A stretch of DNA of 63,018 nt, the filler included, from Dirinaria sp. TL-2023a (Eukaryota), in NCBI GenBank assembly GCA_051941275.1. It is 3 parts of 3 records of this genome, joined end to end, with 100 filler letters (N's around TTAATTAATTAA, not from the genome) between each part and the next. Parts side by side here need not be neighbours in the genome. Positions count along the whole stretch, not along the records: positions 42,174 to 63,018 come from JAVEBF010000274.1; 2 more parts are not named here. One strand, written 5' to 3'. Made by a program: the position numbers and the translations under genes. Under the pieces are notes generated by a model that worked only from the letters and a program-made list of their open reading frames with translations, ran no database searches and was not told the DNA's origin. Below, piece after piece: positions 11,484-63,018 of this stretch; within the stretch, counting starts at the first letter, position 1, and each line of letters begins with the position of its first letter.

Positions 11484-14400
11484 ATGGACCCTTCGACGGC
11501 TTTTAGCCTTGCCTGCGGGATCATACAGCTTGTGGATTTTAGTCTCAAAGCTTTTAAAAAATGCAAAGAAATCCACGACTATGGCGCCTTATCTGAGTAC
11601 GAAGGAGTCCAAGATACCATACAGCATCTTGTCAATCTTCAAGCGGACCTAAGTCTCCAAGAACTTGCTCAAACATCGGCTAGCACTCAGATATCCAGCG
11701 GAAAAGCGCTCCTCGAACTAGCTGCGCAATGCTCTGGTACCGCTCAGGAACTCGCAGATCTACTTGAGACCTTGAAGGTCAGTGGCTTGGACAAGAAGCG
11801 AGGGGTCTTCAAGGTGTTCTTGAGATCTCTTCGAATAAGACCACAGATCAAAGCAATTCAAGCACGGCTCGATGGGCATCGGAGTGCGATTGATACACAA
11901 TTGTTGGTTAGTCTAAGGTTTGTGGAAAATTATGTTCATTGAAGTCTGCAAATTACTGGAATGGCGACAGAGGAAAGATTGACGGAGCCTGTATAGCGAA
12001 TACATAATTTGGCGAGGTTGGGGTCTCCTTTGCTTAGCAAGCTCCTTGCTTTCTCACGCTTCTTATTCTGTACCAGCCTCTGGCACACCAATCAACTCTA
12101 GACCACCAAGCTGTCTACCTTAGTCATCATGAGAAACCCCTTAACAAGCATCATCACAGCACTCTATTTCACAGATTATTCTTATAGTAAAATTCAAGAA
12201 CGGATGCTGGCTTGCTTGGCAATTCCTATGGAACGGACCATTCGCCATGGCATTTAATAAGATGTTGTTGCTAATTTGTTGTGTGAACAGGCAGCGGTGG
12301 GACTTGAGCACTATCCAACAAAGCCGAGGGTTCAAAGATTTGGAGCAGAAGGTTCAGATCCTAATCACCGGCCTCTCCGCAGGACCAAAAGGGTTCGAAG
12401 AGCTGCGAATTTTACTGCAAAATGAAGGTGAAAGAACAAGGGCGCATATCACGACTGTACTCGAGCGGCAAGCAAGAGGATCAGAGGAGCAAGATTTGCA
12501 TCAACGGCTTCTTGACAGCTTGTGGTTTGACGAGATCAATAGTCGAGAGGAAAGAATCACTGATGCTCATAGAGACACCTTCAAGTGGATCTTTGATAAA
12601 TCTGATCAGGCTCTCGGCCCATGGGATAATTATGTACAATAGCTTGAGAGCGACAAGAGCACGTATTGGATCAATGGCAAAGCGGGTTCGGGGAAGTCGA
12701 CCTTGATGAGCTACTTATGTCAAGATGACCAAACAAAAGATGCGTTGAAACAATGGTCTGAAAACAAACATCTTCTTATGCCCAGATTCTTCTTCTGGAG
12801 TGGCGGAACGTTATTGCAGAAGAGTATCGAAGGACTTCTTCGATCACTTATTTGGCAAATTCTACAGCAATCACGAAACACAGCCGCGGCATTACTTGTT
12901 CGTCTAGGAAAATGGAACAGCACTTTTCAGAGTTCAACGGCAGTGGCTGCTTGGACATCGCGCCGGCTCCGAACAGCATTTGAGGATACATTACAGCAGG
13001 CATTGAGGCTCCATCGGCTGTGTTTCCTCATTGATGGGTTAGACGAGTACGAAGGGGATCAAGACGTCTTGATAAATTTTATCCAAGATATTATAAAAAA
13101 TGTTGGAGTTAAGGTGTGCTTATCTAGTCGACCTGACCGCACGCTTGATGAAGCCTTTGGTTCGTCAGCAAAACTCCGCCTACAAGATCTTACTGAAAAC
13201 GATATTCGCAAGTTCGTGATTGATAAACTTCAATCAGTGCCACAAACGCACTATGTAGGTCTACAAGACCCAAACTTGCTGAACAATGTCAAGGAGAAAA
13301 TTGTACGCAGAGCACAAGGAGTCTTCCTCTGGGTCTCTTTGGCTGTGAAAGATCAGATTCGAGGCCTCAGAAATGACGACAGCCCACAACAACTCACAGA
13401 GAGGTTAGATTGCTTGCCTAATGAAGTCGAGGGAATCTATCAGCGCATGCTAGATCATATCGAGAAACCGCATCGAAGACAGGCCGCACATTGGCTGAGG
13501 GTTGTTCTTTGTTTGAAGTCAAATCCATACCGCACCTTGTCTATACTAGATCTTGTGCTCCTCTCTCAGGAACAATTAGATGATATGGCTGGCTCTCCTG
13601 CGAGGATGCCCGAGCTCGAGCTTGTCGTGGCTTCATTTCGAACCTGGAGAAGGATTGGAACCGTTTGCGCTGGGCTTTTAGAAGTTCACGAGGAGCGCGA
13701 AGTAAGCAAGATTATCAGATTACATTATGAAGCGGAATACACTGGAGAAGCCTTTTCTTCCCTCCTTTACCTTTTCCAAACGACTGTTGACTTTGTTCAT
13801 CGCACAGCCCTCGATTTTATGCAAGATCGAGAAAGAGGATGGGCTTTCCTGGAAAAATATCCGTCCTCAACATTCACCCCTCAATTCGCCGTGGCTCGGC
13901 TTCTAATCGCCGAGCTGAAATTGTTTGGGCCTCACGACTCCACTATAGCATTCGTTATGGAAGAAATTTACCGTGCTGAAATTGAGACTGGAGTTGCGCA
14001 ACCAAGGTTATGTGAGCTCTTAGATAACACCATGCACAGTATAGACCGAACAGAGGCGGAAATGGCCACAAGTTCACATTGGAGTGCGCGTTGGGGGCTC
14101 ATTAGGCACGGTCACATTAAACAGCCACGTTCACTTCAAGGTTTACGATCCTCGAGCAGTCAAACGCAAGTTAGCAACAAGGATTGTATACAAGAGGGTC
14201 TTCAACAGCGGGATTTTCTAACTCTCGCAGCTTCATCCGGGCTTTTACTACACGTGCAACATGCACTTCGTAACTATACGGCACCCCTTGACACAGATAC
14301 GGCAAGTCGTTTATTGTATTGGTCTATTTTCTCAATTGACTCCAAGGTTGTCTCAGGTTTGCGACCTGCTCATCAGATTCTTCCACCCTTATCTCTCGCA

Positions 14401-15336
14401 AATGAATTCCTGAAGCGAGGCGGCAACCCAAATCTAGGTGCTTCGCCTTCAACTACTTGGATATGGTTCTTGCTGGCGATGCTCTACTACCTGCATATTT
14501 TTCAATATTCTGATAAACAGTCCTTCGATCTCGACGAAGCTGAAAAGATTGACATCCAAAGAGCTTTCATGCGAACTACCTTGGCCTTCATTGAAAACGG
14601 CGCAGATCTTCATGTGACCTGCTCCTCGAGTATGTATTCATTGGAACTCGATGAATCTCGGGTCTCCTTCAAAGTACACCTCTCGGCCTTGGTAATAATC
14701 AAGTTGTGTCTGCTTGATCAGCCGGAAATTTTTCGTGTCATTAACAAGGGTAATGCCGAAGGCGCCCGATATTACTCAAAATGCACCCAGCTAGCGGTTT
14801 GGATTGATGATCGCCCTTATCACATTCGCGGTTATCAAGAAAAGGGTCATGAAGAAAGCGTTGAACAACGGACTTTTCATCAAAAGGGCTTTAATCAACA
14901 AGAAGACAGGGATGTGAAAAGAGATTCAAGCTCTAGAGCCTTTGACGCTTACACTCATGACGATCAGGAATTTAGCCAGGAAGGAGATGAAAGAGCCTGC
15001 TTCAGTGATAGCCAGGATAATTTCGGCCAAGAAGGTGAGAGAGTCGAGAAGGCAAAGGGCCCTCTAGCCTTTGGCTCTTCCGTTCATGATGATCAAGAAG
15101 ACGTGCATAGGGGCGAAGCTTGGATCTTCTTGTCCTGGAGACCTCCAAGAATGGGACATCTCAAGGTCTATGACGTGCGTGAGGAGGAATCAGCTACATT
15201 TTTAGAATTTTTCTTAAGGAGGCCTAAACTTCAAGCGAACAGCAGATATTGGCACAGGATTCACGACCTTGCTGACGAGATTCAAGAAAATCGCACGGAG
15301 CCTTCACGCGAAATCGCCGACCCATGGTTGTTTTAA
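11484..15336 (+). pseudogene. Fungal NLR-like STAND protein (SesA/HeLo-like N-terminal helical domain + NACHT NTPase) with one in-frame TAG at 12640-12642
   Basis: N-term MDPSTAFSLACGIIQLVDFS, typical of the fungal STAND N-terminal domain. Intron 11918-12290 joins in frame. Pre-NACHT LDSLWFDEINSREERITDAHRDTFKWIF, then Q*LES, Walker A WINGKAGSGKSTLM, Walker B CFLIDGLDE, KVCLSSRP, AQGVFLWV, FVHRTALDF. Confidence 0.85.
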
Positions 15337-16153
15337 TGCGAGGTAAGTAGTGTATTCTGAGCTGAAGAAAAAGCTATCACTAAATCGACTCAGATCTAAG
15401 GCACCATGCTTCGTTGCCAGTATTGATGATGGTCTATTTTCATTGCTTTGAGATGGAAATCAAGAGCTTTAAGAGACAGAATTCACAGCTTAAAGCGTGT
15501 GCCAATAGTCAATCCATGTTCCATCTTCTTACTATAGTACTAGTTCATGCCATACGATTCCTAGTCGCGTGAGCCGTATCAATAGCATACACTGGCTTTT
15601 TGACCTCTACTGAGAGCCGATATAATGCCAGATAAGTCACTCGCACCACCTTAGAGACGAGACCCCGGATCCCGTACCTATTGGATCATCATATGCGAAT
15701 TTGAATACCTTAACATCTATAACGCAATGTCCAGGCTATCTATGAGCTACTAAAGCCTTACAGCGAGTAGAGTCACTTTATAACCTTTATCCAAAAGCTG
15801 TTGAAACTTTCATAGAACCTTCTTAAAGTCAGGGTTTAGCTAGAGATAGAGCTGAGCCTGCATGTAGCAGGGCGATGAACTACGCATTGATTGCTATTAC
15901 TAGAAATCTCACTTACGCTTTGTCTGGTGAGTGTTCGTATTTATGATCGTTAATATAGTAACACCGATGCCAATACCTCTTGGCACTATATATACATTGC
16001 ACTACACCTCAGTAGCACTTCCATCCCTAGTGTCTTCTTGTTTCTCAACAAATCCTCATCCTACATGCTTCGCGATATTGTCCAACGAGTGCTTAATAAC
16101 AAGTATTGGGAACAGTGGACCGTCCAAGAAGATCAAAATTATGTCGATTCATT

Positions 16154-17523: not shown

Positions 17524-18630
17524 TCAGGCTGCTTCCCGATCTAAGGCGATATGATTCGAGACGGAAGAATGAAAAGCAAGGATCTCAGAGGCAGATGCTC
17601 TGAGAAAGGAGCGATTTTGGGTTATTGTAAAAGGAGCAAGATTCAAGTCAGGCACTTCTAAGAGCTTGTTCCTAAAGTATTGCTGCTACTCGTCAAACTC
17701 CCAACCCCTCCATATAGATTTGTCGATAGGCACATCATCCATGGCCTAAAGTTGCCTGACGGCAAAGCTCTGCAGGAGAACGAGGGAAGTCTTAAGATCT
17801 ACGTTCGTATGAGAGCAAACTTAACTACATGCGGAGCTAATAACCTTAGGCAGAATTCAATTCATAGACTTTAGTCCTTGCTTGCCACACGATTGCATCT
17901 CGGCAGTTGAAATCGATAAGAAGGATGGGAATAGATTGCTCTAAGTGTTGCACCAGACGGGAGATATCGATTCGAGGGAGGCTGTGATTCATGCACCGAT
18001 CCACTGCGCCGTACATTGGATGCCGATCCGAAGGATTCAAACCAACAGTTCAACCACAGATACCGACAGATATGACATCTGCCGAGGGCCGATTTAATAG
18101 CAAAACGATCATTTGCATTAGCGAAGATGCCGATAGACACGTTTCTGAGATACCTAATGGGCCGCTTAATGGTTTCAATGCCTCTTGAATCCCTTGAGAT
18201 CAGGCTGAGCCTGCATGTAATAAGGCGACGAGCTGCGAAGTCATTGACATCATATGCGGCGCAGAGTCCATCCAATGTGCATTGCGCCATGTCTATAGTC
18301 TGCCCAATGAGAAGGGTTGGTGGGCGAAGGCATTCCCGAGATGTTTGCAAAAGCGAAGATCTCAACCTCACGACGGCTGCAGTTGAGGCAAAGTCCAGTA
18401 CGATTTCCACTGATACAACAGGCAGCTTCAGGAATGATGCCTGCTTATGTCAGCAAGATCTGGTCTTGGCACTTTGGCATACACAAACCCTTTTGCCGCC
18501 TTGAAGGAACCAGACTGTGACTACCAGTTTCAATAAGGTAGCCGTCACTTCATCCAAGTATTATTATCGTGCTGATTGTTTTGGGATTCTCTGTGTCTAC
18601 AGGAAATTTTATTATTTGGATCGAACAGTA

Positions 18631-20177: not shown

Positions 20178-21017
20178 GACAGGGTCTGGGCCTTTTATTC
20201 AAATCTTGACCTCGGATGTAATGGATACGGAAGCACGAAGATTGAGTATCTGCTTTCGAGCCAAGTCTTCCTTTAGCGGACGGCCAGGTGTCCACAGAAC
20301 GCGATTCTGAGAAGGGTCTCCAATTAAGAAATTCTCAGACTGTGGCAATGATGAATCATAATAACGACTTGGAGCACTATCCAAAAAAGAGCTGCTCCCG
20401 TTCATTCTCGCTCTCTCTTTTTTCTTTTTTCTTTTTTCTTTTCTTTTTTGGAACAGGCAGACGCTGATGGACAAACTGACTGTTGGTGTCAAATTCCACC
20501 TCGCGACTCAGGTAGGATCGATATATCTCGTGGTCACTGAGTTTTTACTTTGAAAGGATGCAGCGTCATCTTCGTGCTTGCGATTGGCTATCTTCATGCG
20601 TAGACGGTCCGCATACCATCCGACTCAAAGTCGCCCAAATTGCTCGGAGCCAGGAGAACGTGTGCTAGTGTTCAAGTGCCAAAAGAAGTTGCTTGCGAAG
20701 TGGATCATCATCGAATCTAACCTGTTAACCCATGTTAAAACAACAATCATTGATGCCACGCTCAGCCATAGACTATCATCCATTCGAAAATCTGGCCGTT
20801 GGCGGCTGGTCATGTGTGCAGTAAACCTTTAGCAGCGAGTAATCAGTGAATGGTCACAGTTGAATTTCGTGTTGATTCGTACAAATAGGTATCTCTTACC
20901 TTTTAACCATCAGCTTGTTTGTCTACCACTGGCACACGAGGACATGACAGACAAGCTTGGAGTGCGCTATACGAGGCTCACTTCTTTCCCTTATCCTTCT
21001 TCTTTTTCCCTCCACCA

Positions 21018-21117
21018 NNNNNNNNNNNNNNNNNNNNNNNNNNNNNNNNNNNNNNNNNNNNTTAATTAATTAANNNNNNNNNNNNNNNNNNNNNNNNNNN
21101 NNNNNNNNNNNNNNNNN
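21018..21117. other. Artificial contig linker (N44-TTAATTAATTAA-N44)
   Basis: N runs flank TTAATTAATTAA, which gives stops in all six frames; an identical linker is at 42074-42173. Confidence 0.95.
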
Positions 21118-38689: not shown

Positions 38690-41177
38690 ATGGTGCAATC
38701 GTAAGCACCACTATCTGCTTCTTTGCTCGCTAATTTGCCTAACGAATGCTGTAGCTCCGTGCTGGGCTTCCCTCGCATGGGAGTCAATCGTGACTTGAAG
38801 AAAGCTACCGAAGCCTACTGGGCTGGCAAACTTTCACAGAAAGAGCTGCTCGAAGAGGGCAAACGCCTTCGTCTCGAACACTGGAAGATTCAGAAGGATG
38901 CTGGTATTGACGTGATTCCAAGCAACGACTTCTCCTTCTACGATCATGTTCTCAACCACATTCAATTTTTTGGGGTACGCTTAACGATGGACTGCACAAG
39001 CTTGGAAGCTAACGCTATACATAGTGCATACCCGAGAAGTACACCAAGTACAACCTTGACCCAATTGACGAGTTCTTCGCCATGGGCAGAGGCCTTCAAA
39101 AGCCTCAGACTGACAAGGAATCCGCTGTGGATGTTCCCGCCCTGGTATGCAATCAATCCAAATGGTCTGTAGGATTAGCTCGCTTACACATCAACGACAG
39201 GAAATGGTGAAATGGTTCGATTCAAATTACCACTACGTCAAGCCCACGGTCCAAGATGGTCAAAAGTTCAAGTTGAGTCCAGATCCCAAGCCAGTCGTTG
39301 AGTTTTTGGAAGCGAAGGAGGCAGGTATTATCACGCGTCCCGTTTTGGTGGGACCTGTGTCATTCCTCGCGCTAGGGAAGGCCGATAGAGGTCAGAAAGT
39401 AGACCCGATCGATCTTCTAGACGACCTCCTGCCGGCGTATGAGGAGCTTCTAGTGAAGCTCAAGGAAGCTGGCGCTGAATCCGTTCAGATCGATGAGCCA
39501 TGCCTTGTTTTTGATCTTCCCCCACGGGTGAAGAACGCTTTCAAACCCGCTTATGAAAAATTCACTGGACTCGGAGACAAGATTCCAAAGATAGTCGTTG
39601 CTACGTACTTCGGCGACATCGTCCACAACATCGACGTCCTTCCAGCCCTGCAAGGCGTATCTGGTCTTCATATCGATTGCGTCCGCAACCCTGAGCAACT
39701 GGAAACAGTCATAGGATCGCTGGGTCCGAAACAAATTCTTTCTGTAGGTGTCGTCGATGGACGGAACATTTGGAAGACCAACTTCAAGCGAGCCATCGAG
39801 CTCATCGACATTGCTATTCAGAAGCTCGGAAAAGACCGCGTCATCGTCGCAAGCTCAAGCTCTTTACTACATACCCCACACACGCTTGAGAGCGAGAAGA
39901 AATTAGATGCCGACGTCAAAGATTGGTTTAGCTTCGCAGTTGAGAAGACTCGTGAGCTAGCCATCATCACCAAAGCAGTCAACGACGGCCCTGCAAGCGT
40001 ACGTGATGAGCTTGAGGCTAATGCCAAGTCCATTCAAGCTCGTGCGACGTCGGAGCGTACCAACGATCCCAAAGTCAAAGAGCGCCAATCAAAGATTACA
40101 GAAGAGATGTTCAACAGACTGTCTCCTTTCCCCACACGCATATCCCAGCAACAAAAACTGCTGAACTTACCCTTGTTCCCTACCACTACTATTGGCTCCT
40201 TCCCACAAACCAAAGAGATACGTATTCAACGTAACCGATTCACAAAGGGAGAGATCACTGAAGAAGAGTACGAGAAATTCATCGAGAAGGAAATCCAAGA
40301 TGTGGTGAAAATTCAAGAAGAACTTGGTCTGGATGTTTATGTTCATGGCGAGCCTGAGCGTAATGACATGGTACAATACTTCGGAGAACGCTTGACGGGC
40401 TATGTCTTTACCACACATGGTTGGGTACAGTCGTACGGTTCACGGTGCGTTCGGCCACCGATCATTGTGGGCGATATTAGCCGTCCAGCTCCCATGACTG
40501 TCAAAGAATCAAAGTACGCAGCCTCCATCTCCAACAAGCCGATGAAAGGTATGCTTACAGGTCCTATCACCTGCCTTCGATGGTCATACCCCAGAGACGA
40601 CATCCACCAGTCCGTGCAAGCCGAACAACTTGCTCTCGCTCTTCGCGATGAAGTTGTCGACCTCGAGTCTGCAGGTGTCTATGTCATCCAGGTGGATGAG
40701 CCCGCTCTTCGTGAGGGCCTTCCCCTACGTTCAGGCCTCGAGCGCGAGAACTATCTCTCGTGGGCCGTGAAATCGTTCCGACTCTCAGTCTGCGGCGTCA
40801 AAGACAGCACGCAAATTCACAGCCATTTCTGCTACTCGGAGTTCCAAGATTTCTTCCAGGCCATTTCAGCCCTCGACGCCGACGTTCTCAGTATCGAAAA
40901 CAGCAAGAGCGACGCCAAATTGCTGAAGGTATTTGTGGACGAGGCATATCCAAGGCACATCGGTCCCGGGGTATACGATATCCACAGCCCGCGGATACCG
41001 AGCGAGCAGGAGATCCAGGATCGCATTCAAGAGATGCTACAGTACCTTAAGCCGGAGCAGCTTTGGGTCGATCCTGACTGCGGACTCAAGACACGGCAAT
41101 GGAAAGAGACCAAGGCATCGTTGACCAACATGGTCAATGCTGCCAAATTCTACAGACAGAATGTGAAGGCGTATTAG
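38690..41177 (+). CDS. met6: Cobalamin-independent methionine synthase (Met6/MetE)
   Basis: 11-nt exon ATGGTGCAATC, intron 38701-38754, then SVLGFPRMG, DFSFYDHVL, EMVKWFDSNYHYVKP, TTTIGSFPQT, HGEPERNDMVQYFGE, Zn ligands IHSHFCYSEF and WVDPDCGLKTR. Confidence 0.97.
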
Positions 41178-42073: not shown

Positions 42074-42173
42074 NNNNNNNNNNNNNNNNNNNNNNNNNNN
42101 NNNNNNNNNNNNNNNNNTTAATTAATTAANNNNNNNNNNNNNNNNNNNNNNNNNNNNNNNNNNNNNNNNNNNN
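42074..42173. other. Artificial contig linker (N44-TTAATTAATTAA-N44)
   Basis: Identical to the linker at 21018-21117. Confidence 0.95.
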
Positions 42174-55421: not shown

Positions 55422-58400
55422 ATGGAGCCGGAGCCTTCCATCTCGCGACAAGCATACTTCTCCACCAACGGTGGAAAGTGGGCTCCTCAGCCTATTCCTG
55501 CGGTTCGCTCACACGCTATTGTTAGGGGTGACGTTCCAGACATAGATGGCCGCGATGAATACGTTGCGAGACTACGACGAGAATTTCCAAAAAAATGCAA
55601 GGAGATTCTCAAACCGCCTGATCGTCCTTACGGTATCTATGATTACTTCGATGGCAAAGACATTTCAATACACAGCGCGAAGTACCTTTTCGCCATTCTT
55701 GACCGCATCGCCGGGGAAAACCTCCACCGCATCCAAAAGCTTGAGTTATTTGTCGAAAACTGGATGAATAGCAATGGGAATCTATTTTGGAGTCTTGCCG
55801 AAAGACCGACAGTCCAGGAGATCTTCAGTCAGACAGATATTGACGAATATTGTAAGGAATGGTTGGAGGACTCTCTGGAACGGATTTGGTCACGGCGAGC
55901 CCACGAAGCGGCGAATGGTATGTTTGGATCGCGCAGAAGCTTGCCGTTGCTGACTTGCCAATCTCCAGGTCATCCCACGCACGCGCAATTGCCTGACCGT
56001 GGCAACTTCCACAGCGATCCAGAACAATGGGTACGTGATCACGTCAACGAAGACCAGATGCAGAATATACCGAGCGCGACTCCGAAGGACATTGTCTCAA
56101 CCGTCTGGGCAGGGAATCCATCATCGCAAATTCAGTCCCATCGAGCTCGACCTCAATCTGGTGAAGTTGATCTCTATTCGGTGCCACCACCTCAACCTCG
56201 GCCGCGGAGGCTTCCCGTCCCCATGCCTGTGTCGAACGATGCTCGTGTGCTCGAAGACATTGAAGCCCAAAAGGTAAGGGAGAAGCAACTAACCCTTGCT
56301 TCCGGCAGTGTTAAGTTGGGTCTGCCCGTCATTCCTGAATCCTCTCGGTCGCCTTGTGAAGAGGGTTATCAATCTCAAGAACCGCTAGAAAACAACCAGT
56401 TCGTGGATCAATCACTTTTCCATGGGCCGCTAGCGATCGACCAGGATGCAAATCCACCTTACTCTAGCATCAACTCGTCTATTGACCTCGCTCCAGCAGC
56501 AGGACTTAGGGTAGGAAACCACCAGCGTGAGCGTTCAGTTCCACGCGTGCAGCCTCTGCATGCGAGACCGCTGGCTCGCGGTCCAGTATTGACGCCTTTG
56601 CTTACGCCCGCGCTACCGCCAGCAATTAAACCTTCCAAGACGCGTCAATACCCCATACCATATCCGAGCTACTATGGCCCTCAGCCCCAGCCGCCTCAGT
56701 CTCCGAACTACCCACTACCCTCCGACGGCCCACTCTCAAGCTATCAGCGGCGACGGAGCGGCAGCGGCCAGTCACGGCTGAGCAGCCAGGGAATGAATAA
56801 TAGACGAGCATCGTCGGCATCTGAGGAGTTCGGTCATATTCAACAGCAGCGAGACAGCTCATGTCGTAACACCATTGACCAATCGATATTCGAATGCAGA
56901 AAGCTCTGGGTTGGTAATCTTGTTGCATCAGATTGCTTCGAGACACTACAAGCCATTTTTCGCGAATGGGAACCTATTGACATTAGTAAAATTTTTCACA
57001 GTAAAATTTTTCACAATAGCAAGAAAGCATGGCCAAATAATCGGCGCTGTCGGTTTGCTTTTGTCACGTAGGCAGCCCATCGAAGTTATCGTACATTACT
57101 TTGCTAATGATAATTCAGCTTTCCAACTTCAGGTCAAGCAGCTGCTGCCATGGAAAACGTAAATTGCGTAAAAATAGCACTGCTCGGTGGCCGAGAATTG
57201 TCAGTTGATTATGCTTACCCGACTGCCCAGGATCAATATGTGTCGTCGTTTTACAGCCATCCGTCGGACAGCCAGCAATGGAGCAATTCATTTAATCAGG
57301 TTATTCCATACGAACCAGTGCCTCTAGCACTTGGATCGCGCTCAGCCTCCGCTGCATCGCGCACCCCATCTCAACAAAACCATGGTCCTGTGCAAGACTT
57401 CTCTCGTGGCGCTGCTGGCCCATCGTACGTCGGCAAAGAAGAGGTGGTCGTCCATATGGACTACGGGTTCAACCAGCCATCCGCGTTAGAGGCAACTTCG
57501 CTGCCGAACTGGTCACAGCCTACCGCTCAACTTTCGAAAGTAACACAGGAACATTCCATCGAATTCCCGACGTCTACTACGAGCCTTCAATCTGAAATGG
57601 AGACTGCACTGCTAGATCATGCAAATCAGGGGCTGACTGAGCATATTAATAGCCAGGCGTACAACGAACATGCACCACAGCCTGCGCTTGGTGATGACAC
57701 TGCAGCTGACGCTAGGTCCCAAGCTTCTGAGGTAAGGGAAGTTCTACATGAACGTCAGGACCAAATCGAAGAACGCAGCAAATCCAATGTTTCCAGAGGA
57801 TCCGAAAGCTTCCCTGGTCCCAACGAGCTAGAAGTGACTGCGCGTGACTTCGCATGCAAGTCTCCCAATATCATTATCGAGCCCAGCTCTAATGTACAAA
57901 AAGAACATGTCCAACATGATTCTCCAGTTGCCGAATCTCCTACCCAATCTATGATCGGCCTAAGAGAAGCTCCTGACCCAACGAATGTCGATGTGAGTAC
58001 TACCCGGACGTTGATTGACCGGCCTGATCTCGAGTCTAATCAATCTGCCAACATGAAGCAAGCCGAAGACGGCCTTGATCCTAGCCCTAAACTGGGCACT
58101 AAAGGAGCTCAAGGTCCCGAAGGCGGGAAGGACAAAATAGAAGCCAGCAACACTACGGAGGGAACAGTCCAGAACTTCAAACAGCCGCCAGCCATGGACA
58201 TGACAAGTATTTATAGCGAAAGTGCAGCAGACAGGCCAGTGAAGGATGGACAGCCTGTAAAGATCTGGAAACAACCGCCAAAGAACAAGTCCAAGCAGCG
58301 TAGAGCTTCGAGCTCTCAGCAAGAAGCCAGTGCAATCCCCATATCTAGCACGGTTTCGGCTAGTCAGACCTTCGCACAGGAAAAACCTATGGTTGAGGTC

Positions 58401-61400
58401 ATGAACGATCAAATTTTCGATAAAATACCCCCGGAAGGATCAGCCTCTCAAGAAATGACCCGCGGCGATAGCAGCTCCTCGCATGAGGTTACGCAGACAC
58501 CTGCACAGGGTGTGATGTCAACGCAGCCGACCACATACGCGCCTTCTGAAGTGTCTGAGACAGAAAACCTGGCTATTCAGGAGCAGCGAACCGTCACTAC
58601 CAGATATGATGGATACGAGAAGAAGCAAACTAGTAGAGAAGGTCTAAAGACTGGTAAACGAGACCCCAACGAAACTATGTATGAGGCCTATGGCACAACT
58701 GGTGAAAACGAAAGCACTACAGCCAAAGAACACCCTCGTTACCCCAGACAGTCATCGAAGAAACTCCTGCCAACCATTACCCCGGCAGTGCCTGACTTTG
58801 ACAAGATCCGGCAATTGCATCGAGACGAACAACGACTTCAGCGCATTCAGCAGCGCTTGGAGAGCGTGGCAACGGGTGAAGCTCTTCAGTCTCTATCTGC
58901 TAAGAGAGATGACTCAAAGCTTCGAACGAGCCATTCCACAAGTGACAAGGCTCCGAACTCCCTGCCAGTAGAAAAGGCTGAACAGTTCGTTGGTCGGGCC
59001 AAGCTTAGGTCCAATGGCATCAAGTTAACACCCTCGTTCGAACGCGACGATACCGCAGACGAGGAAACTCTTTTCCACGTCGAAGATACTGCACTTCCTA
59101 ACGAGTCTAGTCCAGATCAAGTGGATAGCATCAATACATTATGCAAATCGGCTTCAGAGGAAACACCACTTAACATTCTTGGAGAGACGAAACGCTCGGA
59201 GTCTGAAGTCTCTTCTGATAGTGAAAAAGTTGGGTCTTTCTCATCCACGGAAGCCGCAGCGCCTGCAGAAGGGTTGCAAGAGGAGTCGAAAGCTGAAGCA
59301 GTACTTAACCTTATGCCCACAGATCTTGAAGACTCCGAACCTGATGTAGCCCTCAATGTCGGTGCACAAGCTTCTCCTGTTGAATCAGAAATGGTTTCAG
59401 TGGGCCCTATAGTGACACATAAGAGGAGAAAAGTTCGTGAGGGTACTCTATCGCAAGATCATCTTGCATCGTTGGAGCCTAAGTCTACTTGCGATGATAA
59501 TCTCGGTCATTTGACGGGCTCGAACGACTCTATTGACATCTCCCAGGAAAAGTCAAATACAGAATTTGAAACGCAACGCCAGGATTCTCCAGATACGGTT
59601 CAGGAGCAGTCCGTGAGTCACACAAAGTCAGAGCTCGGCGAAGAGCCCCAACCGCCCACCTCAATTGGTGCTGGAACTCCCAGAGGCTCGGTGATGAGAA
59701 AGAAGAGGAAGAACAAGCCAAAAAGGAAAAAGCCGAAATCCTCTAGCATCAATACACCAACGGAAGCAAAATCCTCTACAATCAATACACTATCGGAAGC
59801 TGCTGGTCCAAAAAAGAATCTACCTGCGCCCGAGATGCCTTACCAAATTGATCCGGATCCTTCAACGGCTCGTCAGGCTCCAATCCATGAGCGGCAGCCT
59901 AGGCTTGAGACTTCTAAAGAGCAGATCAATCCACACTTTGTGTCGTTCAGCCGCGCTGCAGATGATTACTATGGCCAGAAAAACGCTACATACCTCCCTT
60001 GGTTTCCTTCTGAAATGAATAGTGCCCTAGCAGTTGGCAGCGACAAGGATGATTCGGACCCACAAGACGAGGAATCGTCTTCAAAGTTGTCGCCCGAGTC
60101 GCGAGCACGAGATATAGCACAAGCAATGAAAGACTGCGGATACATCATCGAAGAGGTAGTCGACGACGAAGAGCTTGAAGGCGACGATGAGATGGGTCAA
60201 GATGACTTCTCCGAGCAGAAAGACAAGCCGCAGCCGACAAGCATGTTCACCTCTGACGAGTTCACGGTCTTAAGTGCTCTAGGCAATCTTACCCGCACTA
60301 CAATCATAGAGAATCACGGCGACCAAGACCGATCTACGATTTTAAACGAGCTACCAGCTGATATTGTTGAAAGCTACATAGAGGGTTCTTTGACCCGTGA
60401 TTCTGCGAGGTTCCAATCCTTGGAGGAAAGTGTCAAAACAAAAGTGAAGCGGCTGGCGGCGCTCGACCTTAGAGAAGCTTATCTCAGGACAATGAGGGAG
60501 AATGATGACTGCAGCAGTGATTCGCCATCAACACCGGATGATGATCATTCTGTGAGTCCGGATCTGAATACTACCGTTGAAGCCACAGTTACATTGGCCA
60601 CTAGTCGTGTGTCCAGAGATACGGGAGGAGGTGAGGCTTCCAGAACCCGTCCAAGTACCGCGCCACAGAAGGAAAATGAGAGACCGACGACAGATGGTCC
60701 TATGGCGGCATCTATATCGAGCTCGAATATCCATGCACCCCAGGAATTTGTCAGAATTAAGCATGGAGACGGCAGTGAAGAAGTAATCCCTGCAGTCGAA
60801 AAGAGTGTTCGAGCGACAGTGGTAGCGCCAGATCCGACCTCAGACCATCCTTCATCAGTAAGCACAGCTCCTGAAGAGAAAATTGTGCCTGAAGGAGCTG
60901 CAAATGATATCAAGGCTTCTTCCGGCACCAGATCAGCACCCAACTACGTCCTGAACGGCATTATCTATACAAAGAGTCCTGGTACGGACGACGGATACAC
61001 AATCGACTACGAATTGCATGAAGACGATGAAGCAGTTTTAGATACAGAGGAATATCGCTTTGACTATGTGACTCGCAACGGCGCAATTGTATGGAAGCGT
61101 GAGGGGTTTGACGAGAATGCTCCCCCATCGAGCTCTACAATGAAGTTGAACATGGGCCAACTGATTTTTAGCAAAGCGGGATCGCTAGAGAATGGGGAAA
61201 TCGTAGCAGTGAGCGCGACAGAGGCAAGCGCTCTCAAACGAGGACAAGAGCAAGGACCCAACTCGAATGTTCCAGTGCCTAACTATTTCCGCCACGGCGT
61301 CATCTATACGAAGGTTCCCTCAACACTGCACAAATACACGATCGCATACAAACTCCAACCATTCGACCAGTCAGTCATGAACTGCGAAGACAATTGCTTC

Positions 61401-61781
61401 GACTTGGTGCTCCGCAACCGCGAAATTGTCTGGGCTCGCGAAGGCCTCAAGGACATTGAAGACGTCGATTTGATCAACCGCTGCGTGTTTAATTTCTGGC
61501 TTCAACCTCAAAACCAAGATTATAAAGTCGGCGACATCATCGAGGTTGTTAAGGGACAGGGAAAGGCAAATAGGAATGGGGATGCGAAGAAGAGGAAGAG
61601 AGGGCTGACGAGGGAGGATAAAGAGAAAGAGAGGCCGTTTCTAGAGAAATTGCCGCCCCCATTGGAGACTTATCTTCCGGAAAGGGAGAGAGGTCGGAGT
61701 ACGGGCCGTAGACTTGGGGATTTGGATTGGGGCGTGCCAAGGGGAGAGCCGGCTTGGGGTACCGGTGGTAGGAAGAGGTGA
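55422..61781 (+). CDS. Very large (~2,000 aa), mostly low-complexity protein with one RRM domain and a duplicated C-terminal domain
   Basis: ORFs 55419-57071 and 57150-61781 joined by intron 57068-57118 (GTAGGC..GCTAAT..CAG), which reconstitutes RNP2 KLWVGNL and RNP1 RFAFVTF..AAAAM..GGRELSVDYA. Probable in-frame intron 55918-55968. NLS-like RKKRKNKPKRKKPK. Confidence 0.75.
59736..59801 (+). repeat. 33-nt imperfect in-frame tandem duplication (KSSSINTPTEA/KSSTINTLSEA)
   Basis: aaatcctctagcatcaatacaccaacggaagca / aaatcctctacaatcaatacactatcggaagct. Confidence 0.8.
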
Positions 61782-62432
61782 TTGCCAAATGGAATGGGGA
61801 GCTCACCAGCGTACCGGGCAGCATGGGGTTTTACTGAGGGGGGGGGTTTGCCAATGAAATTGGATGCGACTTGTTTTTTTGCTTTTACTTTTGAGCGGTT
61901 GGAGAGGTTTCCTGTGGTTTTCGTTAAAATTGACTTTTTTCGGCAATCGAGCCTGCATTGTTGGGAAGGAATAAAACGGAATGGAACTAACCATTGGGTG
62001 CTCGGGGAGACTTTCATTAATTCTATTCTATCGGCTATGGTTAACTTCTCTCATTCCTGAGGAAAGGGTCAATACGTTGTATCGTGTTAGGACCGGTGCA
62101 AGAGGATGCAGATACTATCAACTAGAAACATGAGAAAGAAAATCTAGATACAGTGAGGGGATGGTAATTCAAAGGTAAATGTGTGACTATTGAACCCTGG
62201 AGCAGATATGCGTATCGGTATTCGAGCACGCTATTCCTCATGTTGTAAGGGAATCGTTGTGTAATCCTAGGCTCTAGATTGCTAGATGGCTCTGGAAAGT
62301 GATCTGCATCAATGGTCTGGAAAAATCGATCTGTATAAGTTCTATATGAAAATGATTACATTTTTTTTTTATTCTTACTCGATTCAACACCCACAAGGGG
62401 CCTATGCGAGATCTATATACTTATATCGGCGG

Positions 62433-63018
62433 CGCGTCAGCGCTGCGTCGACTCTTTTCTTATTACGTGCAGTTTTCTCTATTCATAATACTAGAAAATC
62501 CTTCATGCGAGAACTCTATGAGTCTAAGAATCTGAAGAAAGAGCAGTCGTCTGAAATTGACTGAGTAAATCAGTGAATAAAATCATGCGTATCGTCGCTG
62601 TGACATCAATGACGTTATCGAGCAGTTTTCTCACATCTGTGATGTTATTCGTTTTTCGTTGCATTTTTAGTTTTTTTGTCTTCACGTAAAACACGTTAAT
62701 AGCACGTGTCTGACTGTCATGCGATCTTATTCACAGTCGCAGATTTTTGTGATCATTTCAGAGACGAGTCGCTCGTTTAAAAATTGATTGAAATTTATTT
62801 TACTCGTTCTCAGCTGTGTAAACAAAACGCTGTGTGATTTCGCTCGATCATCGTGAAATCGCATATGACGCTGAGTTATCTTAAATGTCAACGCGCGATA
62901 ATGAGTTTCGTTGATGTCTTTTTTTCATTTTCTTTCTCATTCTGCGCGAGTTTGTTCTTGAATCAGCGCTGTTTTGACAGCAGATTCACACGTCAGTTGA
63001 TCGAGCAGCGAATATTTG
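62433..63018. mobile_element. Probable degenerate (hypermutated) repeat or transposon relic, family not identifiable
   Basis: AT-rich, no long ORF, no CC or GG dinucleotide from 62502 to the window end. Confidence 0.5.

Follow-up and report, generated by a model that had tools for sequence, protein, structure and literature searches.

A sharply bounded tract lacking CC and GG dinucleotides at a contig end of the lichen-forming fungus Dirinaria sp.: a possible footprint of CpC-directed C>T mutation

What could remove every CC and every GG from more than 500 nt of fungal DNA and leave CG, CA and TG plentiful? The question is raised by the last 0.6 kb of a 20.8-kb contig of Dirinaria sp., a lichen-forming fungus whose genome was assembled from a metagenome. 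The whole stretch of DNA analysed here, referred to below as the window (63,018 nt), is made up of three pieces of 21017, 20956 and 20845 nt joined by 100-nt blocks of the form N44-TTAATTAATTAA-N44 at positions 21018-21117 and 42074-42173. As the pieces are whole contigs, the tract sits at a contig end. The positions near 21017/21118, 42073/42174 and 63018 are contig ends, and no feature is readable across the filler blocks. The Pfam matches found in the window (NACHT/DUF7791, P450, POP1, protein kinase and Kelch repeats) fit a filamentous ascomycete.

The depleted tract occupies positions 62433-63018 (586 nt, not assigned to a strand) and ends together with the contig. It contains a single CC, at 62500-62501, and no GG at all, as compared with the expected 21.4 CC and 23.0 GG. 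Within it lies a strict CC/GG-free run of 518 nt (62501-63018, likewise unstranded), the GC content of which is 38.5% versus ~48% in the rest of the window. The preliminary description of this DNA had claimed that CC and GG are missing from 62502-63018, that only one CC occurs from 62433 onwards, that a few dozen such dinucleotides would be expected, and that CG, CA and TG are plentiful. Our recount agreed with the coordinates and the counts alike: the 517 nt of 62502-63018 (A131, C94, G105, T187) hold 0 CC and 0 GG against the 17.1 and 21.3 expected from composition, and CG, CA and TG occur 34, 33 and 43 times, at observed/expected ratios (O/E) of 1.78, 1.39 and 1.13, respectively. The O/E values of TC and GA are 1.47 each, those of CT and TA 0.79 and 0.44. 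When the tail was subjected to 20,000 mononucleotide shuffles, the sum of CC and GG averaged 38.0 and had a minimum of 20; the observed sum is 0.

The same run is the longest CC/GG-free run in the window, the next one being 102 nt long and ~76 nt being expected. No such excess is seen for the other nine strand-symmetric dinucleotide classes, whose longest free runs in the whole window reach 0.8-1.6 times the expectation. The rest of the window has ordinary O/E values for CC (0.95) and GG (0.93). The comparison of dinucleotide O/E in sliding windows, which had been suggested for the whole genome and was carried out across the window, showed that the tract stands alone: among the 300-nt sliding windows clear of the tract and its edge, the O/E of CC+GG fell no lower than 0.52. 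We conclude that the absence of CC and GG is real and far beyond chance.

The edge of the tract is sharp, with the boundary falling within ~70 nt. The last clusters of CC and GG at normal density (caccc, ggggcc and cggcgg; positions 62390-62401, 62428 and 62431) make up the left boundary at 62388-62432, to which no strand is assigned. The nearest GG dinucleotides upstream of the tract are those at 62428 and 62431, and the CC/GG density before them is normal. At precisely this left edge stands an imperfect, G+C-rich hairpin with a T-rich run after it (62430-62450, + strand). It is terminator-like by consensus only, and its occurrence is at chance level (one found versus a shuffle mean of 0.5, sd 0.7).

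No coding signal was detected in the tract: its longest stop-free frame has 68 codons versus 79.4 (sd 19.5) in 2,000 first-order Markov simulations, and each of the six frames is interrupted by 9 to 16 stops. An origin from coding sequence mutated by TGG>TGA was considered and rejected, as the reading of TGA as Trp opens a longest frame of 137 codons, which was estimated to be not unusual. The six-frame translations, with X placed at stops, gave best E values of 0.085 against Pfam and 0.14 against PHROGs, both of which were judged to be noise, and Rfam gave no match at E values up to 1. Excess stability of the RNA fold was seen on neither strand (z = -0.11 and -0.24), tandem repeats were not found in the tract, and its direct and inverted repeats are short and at chance level only; the promoter-like sites number one, with 1.9 expected. 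Having neither a coding signal nor a family match, the tract is non-coding. An uninterrupted ORF of 1543 aa (57150-61781, + strand), rich in Ser, Glu and Pro, ends ~650 nt before the tract and matches no Pfam family. In the part encoding its C-terminus, the segments starting at ~60942 and ~61281 look alike by eye; self-BLAST confirmed no repeat there.

Which process, then, could have produced such a composition? Classical RIP is recognised by a TpA/ApT ratio of at least 0.89 and a (CpA+TpG)/(ApC+GpT) ratio of at most 1.03. At 62501-63000, these ratios are 0.48 and 1.21 and the composite index is -0.74, and with TA at an O/E of 0.44 and CA at 1.39 classical RIP was rejected. Methylation-driven CpG decay was rejected as well, CG having an O/E of 1.78 with no CpG depletion. 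The view expressed in the preliminary description that both processes misfit the tract is thus borne out by the indices.

The direction of the change was examined with six saturating models, in which one C of CC, the 5' or the 3' one, was turned into T, A or G in ordinary segments of the window and the change was mirrored on the other strand. It should be noted that these model tests assume a native-like ancestor and that their training set is the same, mostly coding, window. Of the six models run on 235 segments, the one changing the 5' C to T (CC>TC, GG>GA) gave the best fit. Its GC content is 0.386 as compared with the observed 0.385, the distance of the tract from the model mean is equalled or exceeded by 12.3% of the 235 simulated segments, and the predicted numbers of TA and CG are 25 and 27 versus the observed 21 and 34. 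Meanwhile, only 1.3% of the segments are as far from the mean as the tract in the 3'C>T (APOBEC3G-like) model, which predicts 17 CG, 50 CT and 52 AG versus the observed 34, 27 and 28. This model fails mainly because CpG is destroyed in it. The Markov likelihoods of order 1 to 3 also placed the 5'C>T model first, with a lead of 9 to 16 bits over the next model, 34 to 37 bits over the 3'C>T model and 79 to 80 bits over unmutated DNA.

For the tract, the ratio (TC+GA)/(CT+AG) amounts to 1.62, a value reached by none of the 352 native segments (mean 1.06, sd 0.13). The directed 5'C>T model yields a ratio of 1.49 (sd 0.19), whereas undirected purges, in which either C is changed at random, yield 1.05 and 1.08, with 0 of 352 segments reaching 1.62. 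Per 517 nt, the directed model introduces 57.4 (sd 12.0) changes, and the resulting GC content is 0.376 (sd 0.028). The low TpA (O/E 0.44) and high CpG (O/E 1.78) of the tract can be accounted for, because shifts of this kind are predicted by the 5'C>T model. The earlier proposal of C>T changes at CpC on both strands therefore stands with regard to composition, namely the GC content, the dinucleotide profile, the Markov likelihood and the above ratio, all of them taken from the tract alone. The other elements of that proposal, a repeat as the target and a lineage-specific genome defence as the agent, are conjectural. In the broad sense of the term RIP-like, that is, a directional C>T footprint on both strands with a sharp edge, the tract is consistent with such a process.

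Two observations run against the CpC model. In a Markov model of mutated native DNA, 99% of the 352 mutated native segments score higher than the tract, which makes it somewhat unusual for the window even under this model. In addition, the + strand of the tract is T-rich (T 187 versus A 131), and TT occurs 73 times versus the predicted 45 (z = 2.6), of which the model gives no account.

Copies and relatives of the tract were sought in several ways. Purine/pyrimidine word matching for a progenitor copy in the window gave one match of 24 letters, where chance alone would give 2.3, and no match of 28 or 32 letters, and blastn of the tract gave no match either in the rest of the window or among plasmids and phages. 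A degenerate 28-letter pattern of the tract, carrying Y/R at the sites that the CpC model predicts as changed, had 0 matches in metagenome, viral and prokaryote genome contigs. The C-terminus of the neighbouring ORF was used to look for orthologous loci, and none of its 171 pattern matches in metagenome contigs was confirmed. The exact look-up of eight ORFs from 57150-63017 found 0/8 in the protein collection, and no homologue was found for a 92-aa ORF spanning the tract boundary. As there is one truncated copy, with neither a paralogue nor an orthologue found, no C>T change was directly observed.

The best fit to the sequence is, in our judgement, a saturating RIP-like C>T process acting on double-stranded DNA with CpC specificity over a sharply bounded stretch, a reading to which we assign a probability of about 0.4. 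The starting material would have been unremarkable non-coding DNA from the nucleus of the lichen fungus, and the tract may be the margin of a repeat or mobile element at which the assembly broke off. The mutator would hit C only if the next base is also C, which would give CC>TC, seen as GG>GA from the other strand, and ~57 changes per 517 nt would erase every CC and GG. In the course of this, the GC content would fall from ~48% to ~38%, CpG, CpA and CpT would be spared, and no new TpA would arise. Since a CC>TC process cannot regenerate its own target, a level of zero CC and GG should be reachable. The likeliest agent would be a RIP-like activity that prefers CpC over CpA. Dependence on the 3' base is a DNA-methyltransferase-like behaviour, known for RID or DIM-2 in RIP, and is unlike that of APOBEC-type deaminases; the proposed dependence on the 3' neighbour would thus implicate a methyltransferase-like enzyme and not one of the APOBEC kind. 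The DNA methyltransferase domain was absent from the nine long ORFs scanned on the three contigs. We infer all three of the following from the above: mutation rather than selection as the cause, a duplicated target, and the identity of the enzyme.

The location of the tract at a contig end speaks for the CpC-directed process, and repeats commonly break short-read assemblies. That RIP regions may fragment the assemblies of lichen genomes is suggested in the excerpted text of one study (PMC12542154). Against the CpC-directed process stands the requirement that all ~57 expected sites were changed and the other contexts suffered no visible collateral loss. Such saturation would imply a context preference of ~15-fold or more, as roughly estimated from the GC spread of the model. 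Besides, judging by how de Bruijn assemblers should behave, the continuous assembly of >500 nt with a unique flank speaks against a young, identical multi-copy repeat.

Selection could also keep DNA free of these dinucleotides if some factor reads the GG/CC step, and the tract would then be native or foreign DNA, for example, the terminal part of a mobile element or virus that has integrated, in which GG and CC are banned. The sharp boundary and the position at a contig end suit such a ban, but we consider it unlikely: the tract has neither a coding signal nor a meaningful Pfam or PHROG match, the remainder of the contig is plainly fungal (POP1, the 1543-aa ORF), and an undirected purge misses the (TC+GA)/(CT+AG) ratio of 1.62 (0/352) if the ancestor was native-like, as this test assumes. 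It is decidedly improbable that the last 0.6 kb is a piece of some other organism in the lichen metagenome, or a product of faulty sequencing or assembly, that became attached to a fungal contig. The metagenomic origin of the assembly, the position of the tract as the last part of a 20.8-kb contig, the fall of GC from ~0.48 to 0.385 and a T10 run ~60 nt before the boundary would all agree with a chimeric or artefactual end; however, the k-mers used in assembly are far longer than the T10 run, the 9 to 16 stops in each of the six frames are unlike gene-dense bacterial or phage DNA, and the searches of plasmids, phages, viral contigs and prokaryote genomes yielded no match. No error of sequencing or assembly known to us would strip out CC and GG yet leave AA, TT, CG and GC, nor are we aware of an organism with a CC/GG-free genome; both points count against a chimeric or artefactual end.

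Context-specific lesions of other kinds were weighed in the same way. The 5' G of GG is a preferred oxidation site, and its G>T change (GG>TG, CC>CA) corresponds to the 3'C>A model, which was second best, with 6.0% of the segments as far from the mean as the tract and a likelihood 9 to 16 bits behind the best. Nevertheless, this model predicts 18 CG versus the observed 34 (z = 2.9), 49 CA versus 33 and 36 TC versus 50, and random damage would not explain why a patch of 0.5 kb is saturated and has sharp edges, so that we give hardly any credence to oxidation or to another local transversion process. UV damage was rejected on the reasoning that TC, too, would be lost to it and that the 3' pyrimidine is the one altered, and the fit of the 3'C>T model is poor. 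APOBEC3G hypermutates retroviral cDNA at the 3' C of CC (CC>CT / GG>AG) and marks one strand. The tract resembles its products in the CC dinucleotide context and in the C>T / G>A changes but differs from them in having lost both CC and GG and in being poorly fitted by the 3'C>T model. APOBEC3G-type editing was rejected, since that model is 34 to 37 bits worse and mispredicts the CG, CT and AG counts.

The CpC-directed C>T process has its closest likeness in RIP of Neurospora and other Pezizomycotina, which involves RID and DIM-2: C>T changes, in the tract inferred for both strands, dependence on the 3' base, a sharp boundary and a drop in GC are common to the two. The difference lies in the target, which would be CpC in the tract, whereas Neurospora prefers CpA, and in TpA, which is depleted in the tract (TpA/ApT 0.48) and not enriched. 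CpC is the least-favoured RIP context in Neurospora. According to the available portion of one report, both RIP pathways of Neurospora prefer CpA, and CpA differs from the other contexts by about an order of magnitude at low RIP intensity (10.1101/344036). In the host class, Lecanoromycetes, RIP has been reported, and the excerpted parts of two lichen genome papers tell of sharply bordered, low-GC RIP regions in Xanthoria and Cladonia, giving no dinucleotide contexts for them (10.1101/2025.11.25.690456; PMC12542154). The GC content of the tract, 38.5%, differs from the peak of ~16% given for the RIP regions of Cladonia rangiformis in the excerpts of the latter source (PMC12542154). A full-text literature search returned no description of CpC-targeted RIP in the passages that matched, those of the lichen papers describing low-GC classical RIP only. 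Two matches of this search were discarded, judging by the passages returned: the 'CPC' of a Ramichloridium paper is a strain code and irrelevant, and the CpC of a Rhizoctonia paper is a mere table row (PMC4014442).

Precedents for a lineage-specific context of fungal C>T hypermutation are offered by Pucciniomycotina and Rhizoctonia solani AG8. In Pucciniomycotina, RIP-like hypermutation reportedly has TpCpG as its target, as described by Horns et al. in 2012. In Rhizoctonia solani AG8, the hypermutation is CpG-biased, as stated in the excerpted part of its description (PMC4014442). The contexts of both contain CpG, whereas the tract keeps CpG (O/E 1.78) and loses only CpC. It is an anomaly for which the full-text literature search brought up no described counterpart in fungi.

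To our knowledge, RIP and its relatives are the only homology-guided mutators of duplex DNA. The context of RIP-type processes (CpA; CpG or TpCpG in some lineages) reflects the enzyme doing the chemistry. The strict CpC version, if true, would mean that lichen fungi have a differently specified methyltransferase-like or deaminase enzyme, and would provide a natural sequence-specific C>T activity on dsDNA, which is of interest. As a CpC process lowers TpA/ApT instead of raising it, the standard RIP indices would miss such tracts completely. It is possible, though somewhat doubtful, that Lecanoromycetes, or at least the Dirinaria lineage, have a second mutator of duplex DNA beside the CpA-type RIP, one that is strictly CpC-specific and capable of the complete local loss of CC and GG; this would be a process of genome defence or of heterochromatin borders, with a context not known from RIP so far. 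More boldly, one could suppose that eukaryotic cells contain a factor reading the GG/CC step.

Several other features were seen in the window. An ORF for cobalamin-independent methionine synthase is located at 39147-41177 (+ strand) and has relatives at 94-97% identity in ENA and Logan assemblies. An NLR-like gene at 12706-15336 (+ strand) encodes NPHP3_N/NACHT and DUF7791 domains, an architecture typical of fungal non-self-recognition genes. The only repeat of at least 40 nt in the window is a 54-nt direct repeat, the two copies of which (15840-15893 and 18193-18246) are 76% identical and lie 2.35 kb apart.
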